A stretch of DNA of 64,000 nucleotides. It comes from a virus. The notes under the pieces are model-generated. The model did not search any database. It was given only the letters and a program-made list of their open reading frames with translations, and was not told where the DNA came from. This document shows, one piece after another, positions 11,064-50,273 of the stretch; the first letter of the stretch is position 1; the number at the start of each line of letters is the position of its first letter. The translations under genes and the position numbers were made by a program. The DNA is taken from the IMG/VR virus record IMGVR_UViG_3300045988_090087; one strand, 5' to 3'.

Positions 11064-11148
11064 GGAGGAATAGCACGTAATTGGAAGCGTCACAGTCTTC
11101 TAAACTGTTAGCATTATGCTCTTGAGGGTTCGAGTCCCTCTTCCTTCA
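11064..11148 (+). tRNA. tRNA, anticodon TCT (Arg by anticodon) on a long-variable-arm body
   Basis: Acceptor GGAGGAA/TTCCTTC; anticodon arm ACAGT-CTTCTAA-ACTGT; variable arm AGCA-TTA-TGCT; T arm GAGGG-TTCGAGT-CCCTC; discriminator A. Confidence 0.6.
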
Positions 11149-11155
11149 CGCATAT

Positions 11156-11236
11156 ACGGAGTTAGCTTAATGGCTAAAGCACCTCATTTTCACAATTCAT
11201 AGAGAGGTTATATTGGTTCGAATCCTTTACTCCGTA
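11156..11236 (+). tRNA. tRNA-like gene with about 7 extra nt next to the anticodon loop (TTTTCAC, Glu-type loop)
   Basis: Acceptor ACGGAGT/ACTCCGT; D arm GCTT-AATGGCTA-AAGC. The central region CCTCA-TTTTCAC-AATTCAT-AGAGG is too long, and the T stem has U-U mismatches. Confidence 0.45.
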
Positions 11237-11259
11237 CTAACATTAAAAGATTGAGTAAT

Positions 11260-11610
11260 ATGAAAAAGATTATTTTATTAATGAGTTTTATTGTATTAAC
11301 TACAATAGCTCATGCGTTTAATTATGGTTCTATCACTGTTTATCAAGATGGTGAATGGAGTGATCCATTTTACATTAAAACTTCAGTAGTATATAATGAA
11401 GCTAGAAAAACTATTACTTTTAGCAATAGTAAGTTTGGTAAAATGGTATTAAAAATATACTCTTCTGAAATGAAGGATGGAGTAGAAATCCATAACTGTG
11501 GAGAGGTTAATACAGGAAGACGCTTTGTTGTCTTTATTACAGTAAGAAATAAAATTCCTTACGTAACTCTTAGTACTTCCGCAGATACCATGTTTTCATT
11601 TGGCTTTTAA
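11260..11610 (+). CDS. Secreted small protein (signal peptide)
   Basis: MKKIILLMSFIVLTTIAHA-FNYG...; embedded in the tRNA cluster. Confidence 0.6.
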   Translation: MKKIILLMSFIVLTTIAHAFNYGSITVYQDGEWSDPFYIKTSVVYNEARKTITFSNSKFGKMVLKIYSSEMKDGVEIHNCGEVNTGRRFVVFITVRNKIPYVTLSTSADTMFSFGF

Positions 11611-11665
11611 GTTTCCATAATAATGTGTTAACGTTTTACTAGTTTTCCGATATAAACTAGTACTT

Positions 11666-11748
11666 ACGGTAGTAGCTCAGTGGCTAGAGCATCTCTTTTA
11701 TAATAGGTCATTTCGAGAAGGTCATTGGTTCGAATCCTTTCTACCGTA
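11666..11748 (+). tRNA. tRNA-like gene with about 10 extra nt next to the anticodon loop (TTTATAA, anticodon TAT / Ile-AUA type)
   Basis: Acceptor ACGGTAG/CTACCGT; D arm GCTC-AGTGGCTA-GAGC; then TCTCT-TTTATAA-TAGGTCATTT-CGAGA-AGGTC. Paralog of 11156..11236. A 7-bp leader hairpin sits at 11637-11661. Confidence 0.45.
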
Positions 11749-11856
11749 CAAATTTAATTTGATATATTGTTAGTGTGTTTGGATAAATCCTGACTAATAA
11801 ATTTATTAGTATAGGTAGGTGTTACCACTATTCTCCTTTATAGAAATGTGGGCTAT

Positions 11857-11926
11857 GGAGATATAGCTCAGAAGGTTAGAGCGCGGTGAAAATCCCGAGA
11901 TTGTGGTTCGATTCCACGTATCTCTA
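11857..11926 (+). tRNA. tRNA-like gene, 70 nt, shortened anticodon stem; loop contains GAA (Phe-type)
   Basis: Acceptor GGAGATA/TATCTCT; D arm GCTC-AGAAGGTTA-GAGC; T arm TGTGG-TTCGATT-CCACG. Only CGG/CCG pairs around TGAAAAT. Confidence 0.4.
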
Positions 11927-11971
11927 CTATATACAAGAATAAAATTCTATGCAAAATAAGATTATAAATTA

Positions 11972-12045
11972 GCTCTCTAAGCTTTAAGGTGAAGCACGAA
12001 ACTTTTAATTTCGGGAAGACAGGTCAGTACTGTCAGGGAGCACCA
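11972..12045 (+). tRNA. tRNA-Lys (TTT), CCA encoded, unusual T loop
   Basis: Acceptor GCTCTCT/AGGGAGC; CGAAA-CTTTTAA-TTTCG; T arm GACAG-GTCAGTA-CTGTC; 3' ACCA. Confidence 0.75.
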
Positions 12046-12086
12046 TTAATTTTTAATTTATTAAAAGTATTCATTTGTAATACACG

Positions 12087-12116
12087 AGATTCTCAGTCTG
12101 TGAAGATAGAGAATCT
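12087..12116 (+). repeat. Conserved-loop hairpin, copy C (4 nt upstream of a tRNA)
   Basis: Stem AGATTCTC/GAGAATCT; loop AGTCTGTGAAGATA. Confidence 0.6.
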
Positions 12117-12120
12117 ACTT

Positions 12121-12192
12121 GGCACTATCGTCTAGCTGGTTAGGACGTAACTTTTCAAAGTTAAAAGGCGATTTCGAGCATCGCTAGTGCTA
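12121..12192 (+). tRNA. tRNA-Glu-like (TTC) with irregular anticodon arm
   Basis: Glu-type D arm TCGTCTAGCTGGTTAGGAC. The anticodon arm is TAAC-TTTTCAAA-GTTA (4 bp with an 8-nt loop, or 5 bp with a 6-nt loop). T arm GCGAT-TTCGAGC-ATCGC. Confidence 0.6.
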
Positions 12193-12271
12193 CTCTTCCG
12201 TATTTAAAAAACTAATACGATTAATGTTTAAAATATAAAGTCAGCGGACTTTATAACGTTAAAGAGTTGTT

Positions 12272-12299
12272 AGCTTCTGGTCTGTGAAGATAGGGAGCT
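12272..12299 (+). repeat. Conserved-loop hairpin, copy D (5 nt upstream of a tRNA)
   Basis: Stem AGCTTC/GGAGCT (one G-U pair); loop TGGTCTGTGAAGATAG. Confidence 0.55.
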
Positions 12300-12304
12300 T
12301 TATT

Positions 12305-12392
12305 GGAGAAATGACTGAGTGGTCGAAAGTGGCACCCTGCTAAGGTGTTAGTCATATTACATGGCTCGAAGGTTCGAATCCTTCTTTCTCCG
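12305..12392 (+). tRNA. tRNA-Ser (GCT)
   Basis: Acceptor GGAGAAA/TTTCTCC; loop CTGCTAA; long variable arm; T arm GAAGG-TTCGAAT-CCTTC; discriminator G. Confidence 0.8.
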
Positions 12393-12446
12393 CTTTATTC
12401 ATACTTGTAATTATAAAATATGGTTCGTGAGAATAATATTTTATTC

Positions 12447-12519
12447 GGAGGATTAGTGTAACGGTTTCACACGAGGGACTTTGACTCCCTAATAGGCAGT
12501 TCAACTCTGTCATCCTCTA
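12447..12519 (+). tRNA. tRNA-Gln (TTG)
   Basis: D arm GTGT-AACGGTTTC-ACAC; AGGGA-CTTTGAC-TCCCT; T arm GGCAG-TTCAACT-CTGTC. The leader hairpin GAATAA-TATT-TTATTC abuts the 5' end. Confidence 0.75.
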
Positions 12520-12710
12520 CTAATTAATAAATAGGTACTAAACAACTCTCAGTGACTCTATTAAATAGCGTAATTACCTTAAAATTAATCATTTGGGTTA
12601 AAAAGAGAAAGAACGTTAGATAACTGAGGACAATGGAATAGTTTAAATATAACCAGTGAAAATCGCCTATTATTTAAATAGATTATTAACACATTAATTA
12701 TAGATAAATT

Positions 12711-13100
12711 ATGACAAGACAAGATTATTTTATTAGTAAAACCAATTTAATAGCACAAATAGAAAGTGCTAAGAAATTTGGTTGTAAACATGTACTCAAG
12801 TGTGCAAAGTTAAACTTAGCTGAACTTGAAAAGAAGTACAAAAAAGAACATCTTTCTAATCCCCTGTTCAGTTACATGGTAACTGATGAAGAAATGGACG
12901 AACTTATTAGAAATGATGAAAAACCTACATTTAAAATCAAAGTAACTTTTAAAAGTGGAGAAGCTTATGATTTGATGTTTTATCATGAACTTAAAAGTGG
13001 AGTTAAACATTCTGATGTTGTGAAATGGGCGATGATAGGATTAACTAAAACTATTCATCATCCTGAAAATATTGTAGATGCTCGTTTTATTATGGGTTAA
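12711..13100 (+). CDS. Hypothetical protein
   Basis: ORF track; AACACATTAAT motif upstream. Confidence 0.6.
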   Translation: MTRQDYFISKTNLIAQIESAKKFGCKHVLKCAKLNLAELEKKYKKEHLSNPLFSYMVTDEEMDELIRNDEKPTFKIKVTFKSGEAYDLMFYHELKSGVKHSDVVKWAMIGLTKTIHHPENIVDARFIMG

Positions 13101-13105
13101 AAGAT

Positions 13106-13465
13106 ATGGAAGTAAAAACAATACAGATTGACTCTGATACATTTTTAGTGTTTAAGGGACGAGAGTACAGACAGATAAACATAAATGACATTGTATGTAT
13201 AAAAACATCTGGTAAATATAGTACTATAATAGATGTTCATGGTAATAGTATTATTGTGTGTTGTTCATTAAAAAATATTTCACGTGTTTTATGTATTAAT
13301 TTTATTCTTGCAACACAAGGATTTTTAATAAATCATAAATACATATCTGAGATAACTAGAAAGAATGATGAAAACAATACATATATCTTAAAATTAAATG
13401 ATAATATTCATACAACTGTGGATATTTCATTATATGTAGCTACAAATATATTAAAACAACTGTAA
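13106..13465 (+). CDS. Stand-alone LytTR-type DNA-binding domain protein
   Basis: ININDIVCIKTSGKYSTIIDVHGNSIIVCCSLKNISRVL...FLINHKYISEI follows the LytTR pattern. Confidence 0.55.
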   Translation: MEVKTIQIDSDTFLVFKGREYRQININDIVCIKTSGKYSTIIDVHGNSIIVCCSLKNISRVLCINFILATQGFLINHKYISEITRKNDENNTYILKLNDNIHTTVDISLYVATNILKQL

Positions 13466-13466
13466 T

Positions 13467-13586
13467 ATGAAGAAAATAGTATTAAAAGTAACAGTAGAAG
13501 TTCCGGATGATTATATATTGGATGATCCATCTTGGTTATTAGAAAACATTGGTATTGGATATGATTATGATGTTGAACGTATTTAA
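13467..13586 (+). CDS. Small hypothetical protein (39 aa)
   Basis: Hand-translated; the ATG is 2 nt after the upstream stop, and a terminator hairpin lies at 13607-13637. Confidence 0.35.
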   Translation: MKKIVLKVTVEVPDDYILDDPSWLLENIGIGYDYDVERI

Positions 13587-13642
13587 TTTATTTGAAAAAT
13601 AAGAATACCAACCCCTATAAATTACATGTTGGTTTTTCCCAA

Positions 13643-13674
13643 ATATTGTTGGCAACTAGCAGATAATTAGTTGC
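13643..13674 (+). promoter_or_regulatory. 32-nt leader element (copy 2), 5 nt upstream of tRNA-Leu
   Basis: Identical to 11028-11059. Confidence 0.4.
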
Positions 13675-13679
13675 TTTAT

Positions 13680-14290
13680 CGCTTAGTGGTGAAACTGGGA
13701 TACACGAGGGACTTTTGGAACACCAGTAATGGTGAATTTGAGTGCTCTATTAGAAATAATAGAAGTAGAATCTCCCTAATTAAACAAGTTAATTACTAAT
13801 TGTAAAAAGGTTAGCATCTGTGTAAGAAGCAGAGTAATGATTATAGAAGCAGTATTCAGAAATCTAATTAACTTGCGACAGAAGCCTCACTTATGGTGAC
13901 ATAGGTTTTGGTGGTGACGAGCTAAATTGTGATAGAACGCTAATCTATCTTAAATGTAAATTGGAGTGTTACAGCATAAATGTGTAGAGACTATAGAGGA
14001 GATACCTAAGTTAATTAAAAGGAATGGTTTAGACTTCATCCTTAGTAATAAGGTTATAATAGTAATGCATTATGTAAAAAAGGAGACGCTCATTGAGAGA
14101 GGTAAAACCTAATTCCTTACTTCGAAGTTAATTGATAAGGTAATAAAATAGTCCAGACTACAATAACTTATAGAGGCAGAAATATTGGTGTAATTTAGCA
14201 TTGCTGTAAGTTAGCTTGTATAAAAGCAAGTGTGGTAGGAAAATCCCTTGACCAGGAATGGTCTTACGGGTTCGAATCCCGTCTAAGCGA
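13680..14290 (+). tRNA. tRNA-Leu (TAA) interrupted by a 525-nt intron
   Basis: Exon 1 (13680-13714) ends ...AGGGA-CTT. Exon 2 (14240-14290) is AAAA-TCCCT, a long variable arm, then ACGGG-TTCGAAT-CCCGT-CTAAGCG-A. Spliced length 86 nt with loop CT-TAA-AA. Confidence 0.7.
13715..14239 (+). mobile_element. ORF-less group I-type intron between anticodon positions 34 and 35 of tRNA-Leu(UAA)
   Basis: U precedes the 5' junction and the intron ends in G (14239). An R-like CAGACTACA lies at 14154-14162. The track shows no ORF of 60 aa or more. Confidence 0.55.
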
Positions 14291-14367
14291 CATATTAATG
14301 TATTAATTTGTGAAAATTGATGAATTTCTTGTAATTACCTATATTTAGTCGAGAGTGACTAAAAGCT

Positions 14368-14399
14368 AACTCACATTGCTTGTGAAAGTAGTATGAGTT
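14368..14399 (+). repeat. Conserved-loop hairpin, copy E (variant loop)
   Basis: Loop TTGCTTGTGAAAGTAG, identical to copy F; the stem sequence differs. Confidence 0.5.
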
Positions 14400-14434
14400 T
14401 TAAATAAAATTATATAACATACTAGTATAAATTG

Positions 14435-14506
14435 AAATGTGTAGCTCAATAGCTAGAGCGTCTATCGTAGAGTAGAAGGTTGGCAGTTCAAATCTGTCCG
14501 CATTTC
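14435..14506 (+). tRNA. tRNA-like gene, anticodon undetermined (irregular anticodon arm)
   Basis: Acceptor AAATGTG/CGCATTT; D arm GCTC-AATAGCTA-GAGC; T arm GGCAG-TTCAAAT-CTGTC. The central part folds only as TCTA-TCGTAGAG-TAGA. Confidence 0.5.
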
Positions 14507-14548
14507 CTTTTTCTATCATTATTTTAATTTTTAATTTATTAAAAATAA

Positions 14549-14578
14549 AAGAGCTTTGCTTGTGAAAGTAGAGCTCTT
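14549..14578 (+). repeat. Conserved-loop hairpin, copy F
   Basis: Stem AAGAGCT/AGCTCTT; loop TTGCTTGTGAAAGTAG. Confidence 0.55.
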
Positions 14579-14750
14579 ATCAAAATTATGCGAAAACTTT
14601 AATAAGTTAAGGCTTCTTAAAAAGCCTAAAGTACTTAGTGTCTTAGTGGCAAGTTGCACGTCCGGCTAGCAAGTAGGAAGGAGAGGAAGTAGCGACCCTC
14701 AGACACTTTTATAAATTGCTCAAGTATCCGCTCTGTCTTATACACTAATC

Positions 14751-14822
14751 CTTGAGGTCGGCTAATGGTTAGGCTCGATGTCTTATACACATCCAATCTG
14801 GGTTCAAGTCCCAGCCTCAAGA
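14751..14822 (+). tRNA. tRNA-Ile (TAT)
   Basis: Acceptor CTTGAGG/CCTCAAG; GATGT-CTTATAC-ACATC; T arm CTGGG-TTCAAGT-CCCAG. Confidence 0.7.
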
Positions 14823-14911
14823 CTACTTTTTATCATATTATTATTCTGAAGAGTCTAATTAGTTAATCTAGTTAGGCTCTTTTATTGTTTAATTAAATAA
14901 CACATTAACAT

Positions 14912-16740: not shown

Positions 16741-17054
16741 TGATTATACGTATATATGATTATAATGGTAAAGGTAAGTTAGTTAAAATACCAGATAACT
16801 GTGAATATATTGAATTTGATATACTTAATGGTGATATGGTATTGACTTATCCTATACAAGTTGATGCTTGTGATGAACCTCGCAAATGGATAGAGAATGA
16901 GGGTCACTATAAATTAACTAAAGATAAGTTTAATAAGTTATGGCATTTAAAAAGGGATGTTTTAACATTTCAAAGAGTCATCTGTTTAGCTAGAAACAGA
17001 ACTTTTAGAGAAGAAGATTATTCTCCTCTACTTAATTTATTTCTTAAATGGTAG
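16740..17054 (+). CDS. Hypothetical protein
   Basis: ORF track; the TAG stop has an in-frame TAA 3 codons later. Confidence 0.55.
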   Translation: MIIRIYDYNGKGKLVKIPDNCEYIEFDILNGDMVLTYPIQVDACDEPRKWIENEGHYKLTKDKFNKLWHLKRDVLTFQRVICLARNRTFREEDYSPLLNLFLKW

Positions 17055-24115: not shown

Positions 24116-24496
24116 ATGAACAGAAATCAAGCTAAAAAATTTTATCCTATTCTGCAAGCTTTTGCAGAAGGAGAGGCAATTGAGTGTAGAACCAAACCAA
24201 GTGCATTAAGCAAAAGTTGGCAAGATATGAATGATTGGACGGAAATGAAAGAGATTGAGTTTTGGAATAATACAGAATATCGCATCAAGCCAGAACCAAA
24301 GTATCGTCCATTCAAGAATGCAGAAGAGTGTTGGGCAGAAATGCAAAAGCATCAACCATTTGGATGGACTAAACTAATAGGAGAAATCGAGTATAGTCTT
24401 ATAACAGATGTTGATGATACTATTAATTATTCAGATGCTATTAAAGAATATACATTTGCAGATGGAACTCCATTTGGTGTAAAAGAAGAGGAATAG
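24116..24496 (+). CDS. Hypothetical protein
   Basis: ORF track; TAG stop. Confidence 0.6.
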   Translation: MNRNQAKKFYPILQAFAEGEAIECRTKPSALSKSWQDMNDWTEMKEIEFWNNTEYRIKPEPKYRPFKNAEECWAEMQKHQPFGWTKLIGEIEYSLITDVDDTINYSDAIKEYTFADGTPFGVKEEE

Positions 24497-28136: not shown

Positions 28137-28403
28137 ATGGGTAAACAAATTTGGTTGCAAGATGGCAACGTTTTTAGCCAGGGTAGTGCGACAACAGTAT
28201 CTCATCCTGAAGGATTACCGAAAGGTATTTATGAAGTAAAAGTCTCAATGACTGGATTTTACTTAAGTAAAATCGCTGAGTCTTTTACGTTTGATTACAA
28301 ACTGTATGGTCTAAACCAAAAATTTATTGATTATGTCTTAAAGACATATGAGAACACTACAGGAAATTTAGGTGTTCTGCTAGATGGAATCAAAGGAACT
28401 GGT
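28137..28403 (+). CDS. AAA+ ATPase, exon 1 (ends inside Walker A: ...GIKGTG)
   Basis: The ORF stops 3 codons after GTGK. The Walker A continuation (KTVTAKEL...), Walker B and sensor motifs are in-frame at 29715. Confidence 0.7.
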
Positions 28404-29714
28404 AAAATTTAAGCAAATTCAGTAAGCTTAAATTTTTAAAAATTTTATATTTATTTGGATTTAATAAAATTTCATATATATTATAGTAATATTAATTTTA
28501 ACTATATGAATATGAAATTTGTAATTAATGAAGAATTAGGAGAAAAAATTAAGACTTTGTACTTAATAGATGGATTAAGTTGTACTAAGATTGGTAAAGA
28601 GGTTGGAATTTCTACTTCTACTATAAGTTCATTTCTAAAAAGAAATGGAATTGAAGTAGTTAATAAACAAAACAAATTATTATTTGATCTAGATAAAGAT
28701 ATTATTCCTAAATATAAGCAAGGGATAAGTTTATCTAAATTAGCTAAAGAGTATCATACTTCTATCCAAACTTTGTCTAGAAAATTAAAAGCTAAAGGGA
28801 TTGAAATAATCAATCATCAAAATGAAACTAAATTTAATGAGCATATCTTCGATGTTATAGATACTGAAGAAAAAGCTTATTGGTTAGGGTTTATATTTGC
28901 TGATGGTTATATTTCATCAAGAGATAACGGTTTTGAACTATCTTTAAAAGGCTCTGATATTGAACACTTACATAAATTTAATAAGTTTATGGAGCATAAT
29001 AAAGATAATGTCAAATTAGGGGAAGTTAAAAATAAAGATAAAACTTTTTTAAGGTGTCGCTGGGGAATAGTCAATAAGCACTTATGGAATACTCTAAATA
29101 ATTTAGGATGTACTCCAAGAAAAAGTTTAACTCTTCAATTTCCTAATATTTCTGAAGAATTAGAAATTCCTTTTATTAGAGGATACTTTGACGGTGATGG
29201 TTGTTTAAGTTACTATTAGAAGACAAAAATTTTACCAAAAGCTTCATTTTTAGGAACTAGACAATTTTTAGTAAAGATACAAGCAATATTAAATAATTTT
29301 AATATAAAAAGTTCTTTAGTAAAAGATACACGAATGGAAAATACTCTAGTATTAAATGTATCTTCAACAAATTCTTCAGATTTTTTAGACTTAGTATATA
29401 ATAATAGTTCCATTTATTTAGACAGAAAATATAAAAGATATAAAATTTTTAAAACTTGCCGTTCTAAACAGGAATGTTTAGAATTATTAGCGGGTGAAAA
29501 CGGGGAAGGCTGTGATGCTAATCCCGTGGTAAATGAAGATAGTAACGAATCTTCATCACTGTAACGCGTAGAAGTTGAAACTCTTATAAGAGAATATAAT
29601 ACTTCCAAGAGCGCCCGCTCTCCCAATCATTTGAATGGAGAAAAAGGTACGCTGAGCTATAACAAATAAGAAGTTATAGAAATATAGATAAAAAGCTATA
29701 TGATAACAATACTG
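28404..29714 (+). mobile_element. Group I-type intron (1311 nt) with a LAGLIDADG ORF, inserted in the Walker A codons
   Basis: The exon ends GGT (U) and the intron ends CTG (G). Joining restores GGT-AAA-ACA-GTT (G-K-T-V). The 3' ~120 nt is homologous to the helicase intron. Confidence 0.65.
28506..29564 (+). CDS. LAGLIDADG homing endonuclease with two N-terminal HTH modules; one in-frame TAG (29217-29219)
   Basis: YWLGFIFADGYI and IRGYFDGDGCL motifs. ORFs 28455..29219 and 29334..29564 share a frame that is open across the TAG, and the C-terminal part continues the LAGLIDADG fold pattern. Confidence 0.7.
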
Positions 29715-30602
29715 AAAACAGTTACCGCAAAGGAACTTTGTAATCGTTTACAGCTTCCTGTAATCTTAGTGCAATCAATGGGTGTTGATACTAATAGTAA
29801 ATTAATAAAATATTTATCTACATCTATTGATTTTGACTGTATCTTCTTCTTTGATGAATATGAGAAAGAATTTAAAAATTCTTCTGATGTTCTTTCTTTC
29901 ATGGATGGTACTTATAACTCTATTTATCGTAAGGTATTTTTACTTACTACTAATGAGTTAAATGTAGACCCAAATCTTCTTGGTAGACCTTCTAGAATAA
30001 GATATAAAAAGTCTTTCAGTAATCTTTCTGAGGAAGTTACTAGAGAGATTCTTAACGATATCTTGGAAGATAAAACTGCTATAGAAAAGGTTATAGAGTT
30101 AACTCATTCTATGAATATTATTACTATAGACTTAATTAAAGCTATAGCAACTGAAATTAATATTCATGGAGTAGAAGCTCTTCCTAATATTAAAGAAACC
30201 TTTAATATTGAATTCTCTAGATTTACTTATTTGTATAGAGAAGTACAAATCAGACATTGTGACTTGAAATTTACTCCTGAAAATATAAAGAATATATTAA
30301 AAGCTTTTTATAAGTTTAAAGAAATTAAAAAGAAAGATTGGGAGAAATATACTCAGGAAGAAATAAAATTCTATAACGAATGGTCTACTAAGTTCAATGA
30401 GGATTATGGTTCCACTACTGAGGATAAAGAGTTAAAATATCTGGAACCTGGAGATTATTTTGAGGATGATCGTATATTGATGGTAAGTATTAAAGAAAAA
30501 TATGTAGTAACTATGACTGATTATGGGAATATTAGAATATATATAATTAATAGTTGCTATTCTACAAGTAAAGCTACAGGTCTTGTAAATTACGAATTAT
30601 AA
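29715..30602 (+). CDS. AAA+ ATPase, exon 2
   Basis: KTVTAKELCNRL...; Walker B CIFFFDEYE; LLTTN; GRPSRI arginine. Confidence 0.7.
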   Translation, partial: KTVTAKELCNRLQLPVILVQSMGVDTNSKLIKYLSTSIDFDCIFFFDEYEKEFKNSSDVLSFMDGTYNSIYRKVFLLTTNELNVDPNLLGRPSRIRYKKSFSNLSEEVTREILNDILEDKTAIEKVIELTHSMNIITIDLIKAIATEINIHGVEALPNIKETFNIEFSRFTYLYREVQIRHCDLKFTPENIKNILKAFYKFKEIKKKDWEKYTQEEIKFYNEWSTKFNEDYGSTTEDKELKYLEPGDYFEDDRILMVSIKEKYVVTMTDYGNIRIYIINSCYSTSKATGLVNYEL

Positions 30603-36648: not shown

Positions 36649-37392
36649 ATGAACATTAAAGAACTTACAAATAAAGAATTAATAAAATTATATAAGGAGC
36701 ATAAATGTTCTTTATAGGCTATAGAAAAAGATTTAGGATTAACTAAAAATTAGGCAGGAAGATTATTCAGAGCAAGAAATATTGATTATAAAAGTTTGAA
36801 AAATCAATATTTAATAGATTTAGAAATGGATTATTATAACCATCCAAATGTTTGTAAATATTGTGGAAATCCTTTACCTTACAAATATAAGGGAAGTTTT
36901 TGTAATCAATCTTGTGCGGCTTCCTATAATAACATTTAGAGAAGGACTTCAGAACATAAAAATAAAGGACCCCAAAAAAATTATCATTGTTTAAACTGTG
37001 GTAAAGAACTCAAATATGTTTCTGGAAATTATATGAAATATTGTTCTGCAAAATGTCAGACTGAATATCAACATAAAGAGTATATTAAACGATGGAAAAA
37101 TGGTGAAGAGACAGGTGTTACTGGTAAAACTGATATATCTACCCATATACGTAAATATTTAAAAGAAAAATTTAATAATTCTTGCCAAAAATGTGGGTGG
37201 AATTAGATAAATTATTTCACAGGTTTAGTACCATTACAAATCCATCATATTGATGGAGATTGTTTAAATAATAAAGAAAAAAATCTTTAGTTACTATGTC
37301 CTAATTGTCACGCTTTAACCGAGAATTATGGCAGTAGAAACAAAAATTCAAAGAGAACTTCTAGAAGAATACATTATGAAAATAACTATTGA
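36649..37392 (+). CDS. Free-standing HNH homing endonuclease with five in-frame TAG codons
   Basis: A 247-codon frame whose only interruptions are TAGs at 36715, 36751, 36937, 37204 and 37288. Paralog of 1088..1906: CQKCGW..LQIHHIDGDCLNNKEKNL-TAG-LLCPNCHA. Confidence 0.65.
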
Positions 37393-40660: not shown

Positions 40661-41160
40661 ACTTAGTTTGGTTAAAGTTAATAAAACGAATTTTAACTCA
40701 TAAGTATTATGTTGCTAAATATTGCTTTCAAATAGGATTATATTGGCAAGGTATTACTCATGATTTATCTAAATTTAGTTTTATAGAATTTTCAAGAGCT
40801 ATTAAGTATTGGGATGATAAAATGAGCTCTTTAGCGAATGAGTGCAGAATATTAGGATATAGTCAAACATTCCTTCACCATAGAGGAAGAAATCCTCATC
40901 ATTATGAATATTGGATACATTCCTTAGATAATGGAGGAATTCCTGCTAAAATGCCTAAAAAATATGTTCTAGAACTTATATGTGATTATTTAGCAGCAGC
41001 TAAAACATATGGAGCTGACCCTAGAAGAGAATATACATGGTGGCTTAAACAACAACCTCATATGAAAATCCACAAAAAAACTAAGAGTTATATAACTGAA
41101 GTGTTTTATAAATATAGTATAGGTTTAACATTAAAAGAATCAATTAATGGAAATTATTAA
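40657..41160 (+). CDS. Hypothetical His-rich protein (HHRGRNPHHYEYW motif)
   Basis: ORF track; immediately upstream of the NAD cluster. Confidence 0.6.
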   Translation: MNLVWLKLIKRILTHKYYVAKYCFQIGLYWQGITHDLSKFSFIEFSRAIKYWDDKMSSLANECRILGYSQTFLHHRGRNPHHYEYWIHSLDNGGIPAKMPKKYVLELICDYLAAAKTYGADPRREYTWWLKQQPHMKIHKKTKSYITEVFYKYSIGLTLKESINGNY

Positions 41161-42700
41161 TGCAACTGATGGCTATAAGCTTGGTCATCATCGTATGTAC
41201 CCAGAGGGTACACAAATGGTCTATAGTAACTGGACTCCTAGAAGTAATCGTTACTTCCCAGAAGCTACAGAAGGTTCTGTAGTATTTGGTATTCAGTACT
41301 TTGTAAAGAAGTATTTGATAGAGGAATTTAACAAATGGTTTGCTCTTCCTAAGGAAGAAGCTATTAAGCAATTTGCTTATCGTGTAGGTAACTTTGTAGA
41401 CCTTAATCAGGTTGGGACAAAGCATATTGAAGAACTTTATGATTTAGGATATCTTCCTATTGAAATTAAAGCTCTTCCTGAAGGTTCTATCTGTCCTATA
41501 AGAGTACCTATGATGACTATTAAGAACACTCTTCCTGATTTCTTCTGGTTGACTAATTACTTGGAAACTTTAATTAGTTGTACTCTATGGCTTCCTTGTA
41601 CTTCTGCAACAAGTGCTCGTCTCTATAAAAAGAGACTTATGGAACATGCTAGAAAGACTGGATTCCCAGAAGATGTAAATCTAGGTTTCTCTTGTCACGA
41701 TTTCTCAATGAGAGGTATGGCAGGACTTGATGCTGCTATTATTTCAGGTATGGCTCATATGACTTCATTCTGTGGTAGTGAAACAATTCCTGCTATTGAA
41801 GCAGTAGAGCATTATTACGATGCAGATGTTACTGAAGAACTTGTAGCTGCAACTGTCCCGGCTTCGGAACATTCAGTAATGTGCGCAGGAGGTGAGGATG
41901 GTGAGATTGAAACATACCGCCGTCTTATTAATGACTTATATCCAACAGGTATTATCTCAATAGTATCTGATACTTGGGATTTTTGGCAGGTAGTTGAGAA
42001 ATTCTTGCCTAAGCTTAAGGCAGATATTATGAAACGTGTTGGTCGAGTAGTAATTCGTCCTGATAGTGGTGACCCAGTGGATATTATTTGTGGTCTTCGT
42101 ACAAATCCTCACTATCATACTGCTATGAAAGAGGGTAAGTACTACTGTGATTTCAATCCATTTATGGATGATGATGAGAGTCATTATGTAGAAGTATCTG
42201 AAGGTCAGTATTATGGAGCATATTATATGCTAGGTAAAATCTTTGGATGGAATACTACTGTAAATGATTATCGTTATCCAAGTACTAAAGTAGGTTTGCT
42301 CTATGGAGATTCTATCACTCTGGAGCGTCAGCGTGATATCTATGCTAGATTGGAAAACGCTCATATGGCAGCTTGTAATCTTGTTCTAGGTATTGGATCT
42401 TATACTTATCAGTTTAAGAGTAGAGATTCTTTGGGTTTCGCAGTTAAAGCGACCGCATGCACCATTAATGGTAAACTTATAGAAATCTATAAGCACCCAA
42501 AGACTGATGATGGAACAAAGAACTCTCTTAAAGGTCTTATAAGAGTTGAAAAAGAGGATGGTAAGTATGTTGCTTATGACCAGCAGACTAAGGATGCAGA
42601 ACTACAAGGTTGTCTTAAAACAGTCTTTGTAGATGGAGAATTAGTAAGAGAATATTCTCTTTCTGAAATTCGTGAACGTGTAAATTCAACATTAGTATGA
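41147..42700 (+). CDS. Nicotinamide phosphoribosyltransferase-family enzyme (NAMPT/NadV, or Namat of NARP1)
   Basis: N-terminal NATDGYKLGHHRMYP...VVFGIQYFVKKYL is the NAMPT signature; length is about 517 aa. Confidence 0.8.
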   Translation: MEIINATDGYKLGHHRMYPEGTQMVYSNWTPRSNRYFPEATEGSVVFGIQYFVKKYLIEEFNKWFALPKEEAIKQFAYRVGNFVDLNQVGTKHIEELYDLGYLPIEIKALPEGSICPIRVPMMTIKNTLPDFFWLTNYLETLISCTLWLPCTSATSARLYKKRLMEHARKTGFPEDVNLGFSCHDFSMRGMAGLDAAIISGMAHMTSFCGSETIPAIEAVEHYYDADVTEELVAATVPASEHSVMCAGGEDGEIETYRRLINDLYPTGIISIVSDTWDFWQVVEKFLPKLKADIMKRVGRVVIRPDSGDPVDIICGLRTNPHYHTAMKEGKYYCDFNPFMDDDESHYVEVSEGQYYGAYYMLGKIFGWNTTVNDYRYPSTKVGLLYGDSITLERQRDIYARLENAHMAACNLVLGIGSYTYQFKSRDSLGFAVKATACTINGKLIEIYKHPKTDDGTKNSLKGLIRVEKEDGKYVAYDQQTKDAELQGCLKTVFVDGELVREYSLSEIRERVNSTLV

Positions 42701-47697: not shown

Positions 47698-48684
47698 ATG
47701 ACAACAGTTTTAGGTGATAAACTCAATCAAGCTTTTGAAGCTAAGAATAATGATGTAGAAACATTTCTCTGGAAAGGTTCCAGAAAAATTGTAGATGGTG
47801 AACGCATTCAGTCTTCCATGAAAATGGTAGATATGACTGAAGAAGAATTACGTAAAGCATATAAACATTGTGAATCAATGCTTTATAGTGACAACTATGA
47901 AAATCCTGGACGACGAGTTTTGTTGGAACAGATTGAAGATCAAAGAACTCGCTGTAATGCTGAGTTGTTCTTAATTTGGCTATTGTACCCAGGTGAAGGT
48001 AGTACTAGACAAGGTATTGTAAGAACTAGTTTCTTTAATATGCTCAATCAGCAGATTACTGCTCAGGCAGAACAGTTTGCTAAAGAGAATGCAGAAAGTG
48101 GTGAGGGCGAGACAAATGTTAGTGCTATTGCAGAGACTCTCTTTAAAGAGTGGACTCTTAATGATATTATGAATAGTGATGAAGATTCATTTACCATGTT
48201 TGCTTCATTACCATTGTATATCGTTAGAGAAGCTTGTTTATCTGCTTTAGGTAAATGTGTCCGTAAACACATTACTCTTACATTTATTACTGAGCTTGGA
48301 TTGTGGTTTACACGTTCTGAGTTATTAGAATTAAATAAAAAAGACGAGAATGGTCGTTTAGTAGATAGAATTAAGCAAGTTGCTGAACTTCTAAATATTA
48401 AATTGAGAGACCCTAAGAATCCTGAAGACAGAAAAGGTCTTGTTTTAAAAATTGATGATAGAAAAGGCTTAACTCTAAAAGAGTTTAGCGCAATGCTTAC
48501 CTTCCGTAAGGATAAATATGATAAGCGTTATAATGATCTGACTAAAGTACAATTGGAAACCTTAAGAGATAAAGTTTTACTGCATCTCGAAAATAAGGTT
48601 AGATGGCAAGCTTCAGAGTGGGAGAAGCGTATTAAACAAATCAAAGCAGTAGCTGATTATAATGGCTACAAACTCTCTGATTGA
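47698..48684 (+). CDS. Hypothetical protein (328 aa), upstream of the helicase
   Basis: ORF track. Confidence 0.65.
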   Translation: MTTVLGDKLNQAFEAKNNDVETFLWKGSRKIVDGERIQSSMKMVDMTEEELRKAYKHCESMLYSDNYENPGRRVLLEQIEDQRTRCNAELFLIWLLYPGEGSTRQGIVRTSFFNMLNQQITAQAEQFAKENAESGEGETNVSAIAETLFKEWTLNDIMNSDEDSFTMFASLPLYIVREACLSALGKCVRKHITLTFITELGLWFTRSELLELNKKDENGRLVDRIKQVAELLNIKLRDPKNPEDRKGLVLKIDDRKGLTLKEFSAMLTFRKDKYDKRYNDLTKVQLETLRDKVLLHLENKVRWQASEWEKRIKQIKAVADYNGYKLSD

Positions 48685-48793
48685 AGGAGAACTATTTCAT
48701 AAAATCACTAGAGATGAACGACAAGAAGAGTGTCGTAAAAAATGGATAAAAAATCGTTGTGTGGGGACAATAGTTGCGTCTACTGGCTTTGGT
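48662..48793 (+). CDS. SF2 (DEAH) helicase, exon 1 (ends ...ASTGFG, inside motif I)
   Basis: Motif I is broken after GFG. The rest of the ORF (to 48967) does not resemble a helicase. Confidence 0.6.
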
Positions 48794-49142
48794 ACTGTAA
48801 AAGCGGGTCATATACCTGTTAATTACGATGCCGTTCCGATAGAGGAATCTTCGGAATTATCATCGAGCAAAATCGGTAGAAGCCCTATAGAGGGTAATAC
48901 CGAGGTAATAGAAGAAATTAAAGAATCTTCTACACCGTACAGCATAGAGAATGAAACTAATAAATAGTCTAGTTAATAGCTAGACTATTTTTATTAGAAT
49001 ATAATTTCTCCACGAGTGTTCGATACCCCAACTGAAATAAGTGGGTAAAAATTTATGCGGGACTTACTAGTAATAGTAAGAAGTATAGATAAAAAACTAT
49101 ACGATAACAAAATCGAAATCCAGAATAGGACTAAACTGTATT
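48794..49142 (+). mobile_element. ORF-less intron-like insertion (~349 nt) in the Walker A codons of the helicase; boundaries approximate
   Basis: Removing it restores GGT-AAA-ACA-GTG (GFGKTVLKHF...LIIVPT). Blocks 48996-49005 and 49084-49110 match the AAA+ intron. No G precedes the inferred 3' junction. Confidence 0.5.
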
Positions 49143-50273
49143 AAAACAGTGTTAAAACACTTTCCACAATATCGAGTACTAATAATTGTGCCAACAGAAA
49201 CTTTACAAAAACAATGGTGTGGTCATATAGATTCTAATGGGCTAGGATTAAGTTGTGATGTACAAATAATAAACACTGTAATAAAACATCCTGCCAAATA
49301 TGATCTTTTAGTACTGGATGAAGCGCATAGATATGCAGCTGAGACTTTTGTAAGATTATTTGAAGTAGTAAAATACCAATTTATCTTAGGTCTTACAGCT
49401 ACTTTCGAGCGTCTTGATGGTAGGGATAAAATATTAGCAAAATACTGCCCAGTAATTGATACTATTGATATTAATACTTGTCTTGCAAATGGTTGGGTTA
49501 GTCCATATAAAGAATATCTAGTCTTAGTAAATGTTGATGATTTAGAAGAATATGAAAAAATAAATAAAGAATTCATTTCTCATTTTGAATTCTTCGGATT
49601 CTCTTGGGAGTTAGTTAATAAATTAGCTGGTCCTATGGGTTGGCGAAATAAGCTACTCCTAAGAGATTCTATGTGTAGTGATCCTAATAAAAAGTCTGAA
49701 GTATTACAAAGTATAAATTATCATGCTATCAGATTTTGGTCTACTATGCATGAGAAAAAAGCTTTCATAAATAATCATCCAAAGAAAATTGAAATAGTAA
49801 AGAAAATTATAGAAGCTAGAAAGGATAAAAAAATAATAACTTTTGCTAATAATATTAAAATGGCAGAAAAAATTCCTAATGCTACTGTATATTCTAGTAG
49901 AACTTCTAAGAAAAGAAGTGCTACAGCTATTGAAGATTTTAACTCTGGAAAGGTAACTCTATTATCTACAGTAAAAAAAGCTGATGAAGGACTTGATGTA
50001 AAAGGTCTTTCTGTAGCTATTATATTTGGATTAGATAGTTCAACTACTAGAGCTTGTCAACGGAGAGGAAGATCAATCCGCTTTGAAAAAGGTAAGACAG
50101 CAGAAATATTCAATATAGTATTAAATAGAACTCAAGAAACTAAGTGGTTTTATGATTCTCATAAGGGAGATTCTTTTATAACTATAGACGAATCAGAATT
50201 GGATAAAGTATTACAAGGTAAAGACTTTACCCCAGGTGAAAAGATAGTTCCTAAATTTGATTTTAGATTCTGA
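49143..50273 (+). CDS. SF2 (DEAH) helicase, exon 2
   Basis: LIIVPT (Ia), LVLDEAHRY (II), GLTATFER (III), QRRGRSIR (VI). Confidence 0.75.
   Translation, partial: KTVLKHFPQYRVLIIVPTETLQKQWCGHIDSNGLGLSCDVQIINTVIKHPAKYDLLVLDEAHRYAAETFVRLFEVVKYQFILGLTATFERLDGRDKILAKYCPVIDTIDINTCLANGWVSPYKEYLVLVNVDDLEEYEKINKEFISHFEFFGFSWELVNKLAGPMGWRNKLLLRDSMCSDPNKKSEVLQSINYHAIRFWSTMHEKKAFINNHPKKIEIVKKIIEARKDKKIITFANNIKMAEKIPNATVYSSRTSKKRSATAIEDFNSGKVTLLSTVKKADEGLDVKGLSVAIIFGLDSSTTRACQRRGRSIRFEKGKTAEIFNIVLNRTQETKWFYDSHKGDSFITIDESELDKVLQGKDFTPGEKIVPKFDFRF

Follow-up and report, generated by a model that had tools for sequence, protein, structure and literature searches.

The 64,000-nucleotide viral sequence IMGVR_UViG_3300045988_090087 (hereafter the window) contains a group-I-like intron that interrupts an ATPase gene and carries a gene for a LAGLIDADG homing endonuclease, the frame of which is broken by one TAG codon at 29217-29219. 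This locus raises the question of whether the TAG ends the protein or is read as an amino acid. An earlier inspection of the letters alone (the sequence-only reading) had proposed that the gene needs one TAG read-through. The in-frame TAG was confirmed in our analysis, but a read-through particular to this gene was not; a lineage-wide reassignment of TAG to Gln was indicated instead. As the phage lineage reads TAG as Gln, a TAG in the nuclease is expected and does not represent a new mechanism. We consider it likely that this TAG is a sense codon, probably for Gln, so that the complete nuclease appears only while TAG is being decoded, presumably in late infection.

The endonuclease frame and the domain beyond its TAG

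The listing of open reading frames (ORFs) and the translation indicated that ORFs 28455..29219 and 29334..29564 lie in the same frame and that the TAG is the only break between them; it is also the sole internal stop of the endonuclease gene (Table 1). The TAG had been placed nine codons past the second LAGLIDADG motif. It is actually the sixth codon after the final G of that motif (FIRGYFDGDG-CLSYY-TAG). The start was assigned to the ATG at 28506; one allele (L017) has ATA there and ATG at 28512. Both catalytic Asp residues are encoded upstream of the TAG, and the motif columns were invariant or nearly so in an alignment of 58 homologues. From the base composition, the chance of the 114-codon stop-free stretch that follows the TAG was estimated as approximately 1e-5 in DNA of 27% G+C. 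This probability and the homology to the C-terminal part of full-length relatives argue that the frame after the TAG did not arise by chance. If codon 238 is decoded, the peptide expected across it is GYFDGDGCLSYYQK.

The identical TAG was found in seven independent assemblies (the window, MT835492, L007/L008, L015, L016, L017, and L038), which excludes a sequencing error. The possibility of an assembly or sequencing mistake in an intact gene, in favour of which it can be said that the TAG is a single base triplet and nothing further, was ruled out, because these assemblies came from different samples and pipelines and the database clusters of the truncated protein contained 10 and 363 member sequences. 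We regard its probability as negligible.

A database search with the nuclease returned more than 5000 homologues. Full-length relatives of approximately 350 amino acids (aa) covered 99% of the read-through protein with up to 68-69% identity, and the closest entries (97-99% identity) were 237 or 254 aa long, the gene callers having stopped at the same TAG. The post-TAG part showed 61-62% identity to P0002, P0003, and P0005, which was equal to the identity among those three; hence the C-terminal part in the window is not decayed relative to them. The column of the TAG is occupied by V, I, T, or Q in the relatives. We also ran the profile search on both versions of the protein. Pfam LAGLIDADG_3 matched the read-through protein in two stretches, with residues 222-280 aligned to positions 5-60 of the 82-position profile across the TAG (E = 6.5e-11), whereas the match to the truncated protein ended at residue 235 (E = 1.4e-5). 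The alignment thus continued beyond residue 238, and the downstream frame was homologous to the family.

The expected fold of two alpha-beta-beta-alpha-beta-beta-alpha domains in one DNA-binding saddle was judged by proxy from an AlphaFold model of the 68% identical P0003, whereas the truncated window protein was modelled exactly. The P0003 model (predicted local distance difference test score, pLDDT, 86.9) comprised two helix-turn-helix domains and, after them, two alpha/beta domains of the LAGLIDADG type, and on it the TAG fell where the first beta-strand of domain 2 ends. For the truncated protein, the model (pLDDT 87.0) ended with the second LAGLIDADG helix and contained no beta-strand of domain 2, which indicates that half of the DNA-binding saddle would be lost on truncation. 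The sequence-only reading had taken the downstream segment for the C-terminal half of the second LAGLIDADG domain and had expected truncation to remove it. Homology, the Pfam match across the TAG, and the P0003 model agreed with the first point, and the truncated model with the second.

In a Foldseek search, the best PDB matches of the P0003 model were all double-motif LAGLIDADG enzymes or maturases, namely I-Tsp061I, I-AniI, bI3, I-SceI, I-DmoI, and I-OnuI (E = 1e-8 to 1e-6, 200-290 aligned columns, 11-21% sequence identity). A sequence-based profile search of the PDB matched the helix-turn-helix region only and returned nothing for the nuclease part. From its motifs and the two-domain fold predicted through P0003, the window gene is assigned to the double-motif monomeric LAGLIDADG homing endonucleases. 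It shares with I-Tsp061I (2dch), I-AniI (1p8k/3eh8), the bI3 maturase (2ab5), I-SceI, and I-OnuI the predicted two-domain fold and two LAGLIDADG helices, each with an acidic residue. The window family differs from these enzymes in two additions: a pair of helix-turn-helix domains at the N-terminus and a tail at the C-terminus that the ribozyme core encodes.

These models also bear on a different account of the TAG, in which the 237-aa protein serves a role of its own (for example, binding to DNA or RNA, assistance in splicing, or formation of a homodimer via the LAGLIDADG helices) and the full nuclease is made when TAG is decoded. The truncated model was confident and well folded and comprised a single LAGLIDADG domain besides the two helix-turn-helix domains; the structural neighbours include the LAGLIDADG maturases bI3 and I-AniI. 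In the truncated protein, however, the terminal LAGLIDADG helix is left unpaired, and any activity of the fragment is hypothetical. We consider this account of two functional products quite improbable, and return to it below with the selection data.

TAG as a glutamine codon in the phage lineage

The sequence-only reading had counted two selfish nucleases with amber codons in the window, and the other one was found to be the HNH homing endonuclease gene listed in Table 1. Its five TAGs aligned to Gln at all five positions in P0121 (a 98% homologue) and at four of the five in P0122 (an 80% homologue); the fifth (NL-Q-LLCPNCH) was Gln in 118 of 120 homologues. The DNA of the 98% allele carried the same five TAGs and that of the 80% allele nine, with TAG and CAA/CAG exchanged at Gln positions. 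These alignments and exchanges indicate that TAG means Gln in the window.

The window has approximately 30% G+C, and all of its genes lie on the plus strand. Its 24-64 kb part matched MT835492, a 121.6-kb human faecal phage scaffold, with 91-98% identity (96.3% over the locus). On the minus strand of MT835492, ORFs of at least 150 aa increased from 6.6 kb in the standard code to 57.9 kb when TAG was read through. Twenty-one large late ORFs, one of which matched the PHROG major head protein, contained 583 in-frame TAGs in 18,306 codons, and TAG accounted for 60% of their Gln-type codons. The amino acid could not be read from a comparison of MT835492 late proteins with those of the standard-code phage cr6_1, which were too distant (best match, 24% identity), and tblastn of a 1344-aa late protein of MT835492 returned only itself and one weak match. 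The lineage belongs to the crAss-like gut phages and, on these codon data, reads TAG as Gln (genetic code 15).

Reading TAG through in the window ORFs merged only the two nuclease genes and added one doubtful extension; the other 66 large plus-strand ORFs had been called to the first stop and are TAG-free by construction. Ten window ORFs end in TAG, and eight of them have TAA or TGA as a back-up stop 0-13 codons on (ORF ends at 17054, 18310, 20447, 25565, 47134, 48967, 54169, and 61042). Such back-up stops would be expected where TAG is read through at times. Early genes that end in TAG with a nearby TAA or TGA are a pattern described in the literature for crAss-like phages. Judged by this codon usage, the early genes of the window avoid in-frame TAG. 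The exception, ORF 24116..24496, has a 71-codon, junk-looking extension that overlaps the next gene.

Related LAGLIDADG nucleases contain recoded stops as well. The DNA of P0007, P0012, P0013, P0014, and P0017 carries 1-6 in-frame TAGs. The database proteins of L034-L037, L039, L040, and L041 (P0007, P0012-P0014, P0017, P0121, and P0122) owe their uninterrupted appearance solely to the rendering of TAG as Q by their sources. Among the four closest relatives (P0007 and P0012-P0014), two positions were TAG in all, both at a conserved Gln, and one of them was the invariant Gln of INHQN. L018-L020 have two TAGs at other sites, one aligned to Gln in P0009 and P0031. In the IMG/VR contigs L022-L028 and L032, TGA stands at the invariant Trp126 and Trp194, which indicates that these phages read TGA as Trp. 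Judged from these alignments, the LAGLIDADG nuclease family follows the code of its host phage.

Based on the favoured reading, the following course of events is proposed. The nuclease gene is carried by a mobile group-I-like intron that splits the Walker A codons of an early AAA ATPase gene. Early in infection, TAG would act as a stop and the product would end after residue 237, leaving two helix-turn-helix domains, one complete LAGLIDADG domain, and the second LAGLIDADG helix alone, with no two-domain saddle. Late in infection, TAG would be decoded and the full 352-aa enzyme made. It may then cut intron-less ATPase alleles of co-infecting phages, so that the intron would be copied in; the putative target is presumably the intron-less ATPase allele around the junction of GGAACTGGT and AAAACAGTTACC. 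The TAG would in this way make nuclease synthesis dependent on the late, recoded state.

Constraint after the TAG and alternative accounts

Several observations weigh against a TAG that is decoded as described above. Among the TAG-bearing alleles, the numbers of synonymous and non-synonymous changes (S:N) were 55:19 before the TAG and 9:18 over the 61 codons that follow it (Fisher p = 3e-4), and the post-TAG changes were spread evenly over the three codon positions. The same 61-codon segment had a 1.7-fold higher N/S in the L034-L037 comparison clade too, but the drop in constraint persisted after correction for this factor (p = 0.002). Such a drop agrees with a C-terminal part that is translated weakly or not at all. 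Lack of further stops is weak evidence for constraint, with a probability of approximately 0.14 under neutrality. Two deletions were found in MT835492 (L001/L004): one of 38 nucleotides (nt) (window 28518-28555), which shifts the frame at the nuclease start, and one of 134 nt (29602-29735), which is flanked by an ACTT repeat and takes away the 3' end of the intron together with 21 nt at the start of exon 2. In addition, the window holds no late genes, and recoding of this genome rests on the HNH gene and the 96% relative; the timing of expression, too, is inferred. Finally, ARAGORN (at default and at relaxed settings), Rfam, and a pattern scan all failed to reveal a CUA-anticodon tRNA, both in the window, which is only part of a genome of probably 137-169 kb, and in MT835492. 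The 'Pyl(cta)' calls of relaxed ARAGORN in MT835492 were dropped, as they lay inside coding sequence. Even in crAss-like phages with clear recoding, suppressor tRNAs sometimes escape detection (PMC7886860).

For calibration of the selection estimates, the L034-L037 clade was usable; L018-L020, L022-L032, and L009-L014 gave too few changes. In the L034-L037 clade, S:N was 13:7 before and 80:50 after the first TAG, that is, the ratio was the same. The median ratio of amino-acid divergence, post-TAG to upstream, was 4.6 in the TAG clade and 1.8 in the clades called full-length. By these comparisons, the C-terminal half is under clearly weaker amino-acid constraint in the TAG clade. Possible causes are partial or late translation past the TAG, adaptation of the strands in contact with the target's exon-2 side, and incipient decay.

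In a decay account, the TAG would be a true nonsense mutation that spread after fixation of the intron in this lineage, with the C-terminal 114 codons untranslated and drifting. The jump in N:S falls exactly at the TAG, the later changes are even over codon positions, the divergence ratio is raised in the TAG clade, and MT835492 carries further damage in its two deletions. Loss of the nuclease after fixation is, moreover, an expected part of the life cycle of homing endonuclease genes. However, the lineage decodes TAG as Gln, so that a TAG is not a null mutation, and sister nucleases carry several TAGs at conserved Gln with unchanged constraint after them. The C-terminal part in the window is no more diverged from full-length relatives than those are from one another; seven alleles contain no further stop or indel past the TAG; and many of the replacements are conservative (V/I, K/R, A/V, and A/S) or the same as in full-length relatives. 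L038 has the same TAG-bearing core with another N-terminal region and another host ATPase exon, which suggests that the element kept moving by homing after the TAG was acquired. As for the MT835492 copy, it may be defective or decaying, or the record, which is marked unverified, may be misassembled. We regard a nonsense mutation followed by drift as unlikely; in that account, the N-terminal 237 residues would have some other role or simply would not have decayed yet.

The same data bear on a fragment with its own function. Strong purifying selection on the first 237 codons (55 S : 19 N) and the fall of constraint at the TAG are consistent with two functional products, but this pattern also fits simple relaxation or faster-evolving target-contact strands. 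Furthermore, the other TAGs in the family lie at quite different positions, so that no conserved switch site is seen. In a related form of the idea, the TAG would be a developmental switch, with an early 237-aa fragment that has its own selected function and the full nuclease made only late; the fragment might bind the intron RNA or the P-loop target DNA. We consider this form improbable, although if it were true, the abrupt change of selection at the TAG would be due to differing regimes on the two products and not to decay. Decoding of the TAG as a sense codon is retained as the favoured reading.

The intron, its host genes and comparable systems

The features of the locus, together with the second amber-bearing nuclease gene, are listed in Table 1.

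Table 1 Positions of the intron, its host ATPase gene, and the two nuclease genes in the window.
Feature	Position	Strand	Description
ATPase exon 1	28137..28403	+	AAA family; ends ...GGA ACT GGT (GIKGTG)
Group-I-like intron	28404..29714	+	1311 nt; U before the 5' splice site, last base G (...AACAATACTG)
LAGLIDADG homing endonuclease gene	28506..29564	+	352 codons; two N-terminal helix-turn-helix domains, then two LAGLIDADG domains
LAGLIDADG motif 1	28881..28907	+	WLGFIFADG, residues 126-134, catalytic Asp133; helix 121-133 (model)
LAGLIDADG motif 2	29172..29201	+	FIRGYFDGDG, residues 223-232, Asp231; helix 217-231 (model)
In-frame TAG	29217..29219	+	Codon 238; most likely Gln; turn following domain-2 beta-strand 1; variable column
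Post-TAG part	29220..29564	+	Remaining domain-2 beta-strands and helices, C-terminal tail; 61-62% identity to full-length relatives
Structured intron RNA core	29490..29714	+	Overlaps the last 25 endonuclease codons; RNAalifold
ATPase exon 2	29715..30602	+	Begins AAA ACA GTT ACC (KTVTAKE...)
HNH homing endonuclease gene	36649..37392	+	5 in-frame TAGs; Pfam HNH match

The intron boundaries were obtained by comparison of three intron-bearing loci (the window, L009, and crAss phage cr6_1), with the junctions ...GGT/AAAATTT... and ...ACTG/AAAACAGTT (slash, splice site). The cr6_1 record annotates the corresponding gene as an intron-encoded endonuclease. Excision of the intron joins ...GGT/AAA ACA... 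and gives GIKGTGKTVTAKE, by which the Walker A motif (GIKGTGKT) is restored. In the spliced protein, the exon junction lies within the Pfam AAA match, and this protein aligned in one piece with uninterrupted genes, with at least 80% query coverage in 181 phage records. The restored Walker A motif and the one-piece alignment bear out the earlier claim that the endonuclease is intron-encoded. The 252 non-coding bases of the intron showed no difference from L007/L008, whereas the coding bases between them differed by approximately 5%.

The U before the 5' splice site and the final G were also present in L009, cr6_1, L038, L039, and an ORF-less copy of the intron at 48794..49115. An RNAalifold consensus was made from the 3' 215-250 nt of eight divergent members inserted in different genes, and 34 of its 53 pairs keep pairing via changes on both sides. 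Sequence homologous to the core starts at a TGCCGT motif (29457), which was found in the ORF-less copy as well. The high conservation of the nuclease tail (CRS..ELL..GE.CD.N) is attributed to its overlap with this structured core. Rfam RF00028 (Intron_gpI) gave no match in the whole window at the gathering score, or in 28300-29800 and 48500-49250 at E <= 10. Inspection of the intron 28404..29714 by eye revealed no convincing P1 that contains a U-G pair. As RF00028 did not match, the group I label is based on the type of endonuclease, on the bases at the splice sites, and on the literature (PMC7886860).

The ORF-less copy belongs to the same family as the first intron and is 322 nt long; it lies between exons 48662..48793 and 49116..50273 and splits the Walker A motif (ASTGFG/KS) of an SF2 helicase. 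At the equivalent site, MT835492 has approximately 950 nt extra, with LAGLIDADG-like sequence. Every examined copy in an ATPase or helicase gene (28403/28404, 48793/48794, L009, L002 = cr6_1, L038, and L039) lies between the P-loop Gly and Lys (GxGK followed by T or S), and the host genes and phages of these P-loop insertions differ. These positions suggest homing of the intron family to Walker A codons, at the G/K junction, in various ATPases and helicases. A related intron and nuclease with 66% DNA identity were found in Prevotella phage Lak-A1 (L003, MK250015), a 540-kb Lak megaphage, in an unrelated gene context. This copy has the same conserved 3' core, and its nuclease frame appears interrupted.

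Some other features of the window were recorded. The segment 36562-37769, which holds the HNH gene and is flanked by tRNA genes, is absent from MT835492, indicating a recent insertion or deletion. The segment 40752..42605, with a nicotinamide/nicotinate phosphoribosyltransferase gene (Pfam NAPRTase and NAMPT_N; ORF 41135..42700), is also absent from MT835492. A tRNA cluster at 11064..14823 has several abnormal members, all scoring 43-52 bits on the Rfam tRNA model and none with a CUA anticodon. The tRNAs at 11156-11236 and 11666-11748 have 11-12 extra anticodon-loop bases, those at 12121-12192 and 14435-14506 have 6-base anticodon loops, that at 11857-11926 has a shortened anticodon stem, and that at 11064-11148 has a long variable arm and the anticodon UCU.

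Delayed synthesis of an intron endonuclease encoded within an early gene is known from phage T4, in which late promoters and an RNA structure that hides the ribosome-binding site delay the synthesis of enzymes such as I-TevI. The window nuclease resembles I-TevI in its location in an early-gene intron and in the expected delay, but the T4 system uses no recoded stop codon. A closer parallel was described in Agate phages, in which a group I intron endonuclease in an early gene is gated by in-frame recoded stops until late infection (Borges et al. 2021, bioRxiv 10.1101/2021.08.26.457843). In both cases, a homing endonuclease lies in an intron of an early gene in a stop-recoding phage, self-splicing in the Agate phages and putatively so in the window, and the nuclease is expected to be held back until late. 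The Agate system differs in that TGA is read as Trp, the phage group is another one, and the gene is statistically enriched in recoded codons, whereas the window gene has a single TAG (Gln) at a variable loop position in a crAss-like phage.

The crAss-like phages that read TAG as Gln or TGA as Trp, mostly in late genes, and that contain many group I introns were described by Yutin et al. 2021 (PMC7886860). In the Zeta group, intron ORFs contain stops that need suppression (PMC7886860, Fig. 7c). As a system close to that of the window, the Zeta phages have many group I introns and inteins, suppressed stops in intron ORFs, reassignment mostly in late genes, and suppressor tRNAs that are sometimes undetectable. 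The published example differs, as it is a PolB gene with TGA in which the host gene and the intron ORF both contain stops; in the window, the ATPase is TAG-free and only the intron ORF is affected. In Peters et al. 2022, TAG was confirmed as Gln in crAss-like phages by mass spectrometry. The window case is a further example of the published recoded-stop intron endonucleases, with TAG/Gln in a crAss-like phage.

These results have a consequence for annotation: standard gene callers split the nuclease into pieces of 237/254 aa and 76 aa, and public clusters of hundreds of sequences hold the truncated form. The repeated targeting of the P-loop G/K junction by this intron family may interest specialists. 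The drop in constraint at the recoded codon provides a natural test of how far conditional decoding shields downstream sequence from selection. Finally, the locus adds a TAG/Gln example from crAss-like phages to the idea that recoded stops silence intron endonucleases until late infection.

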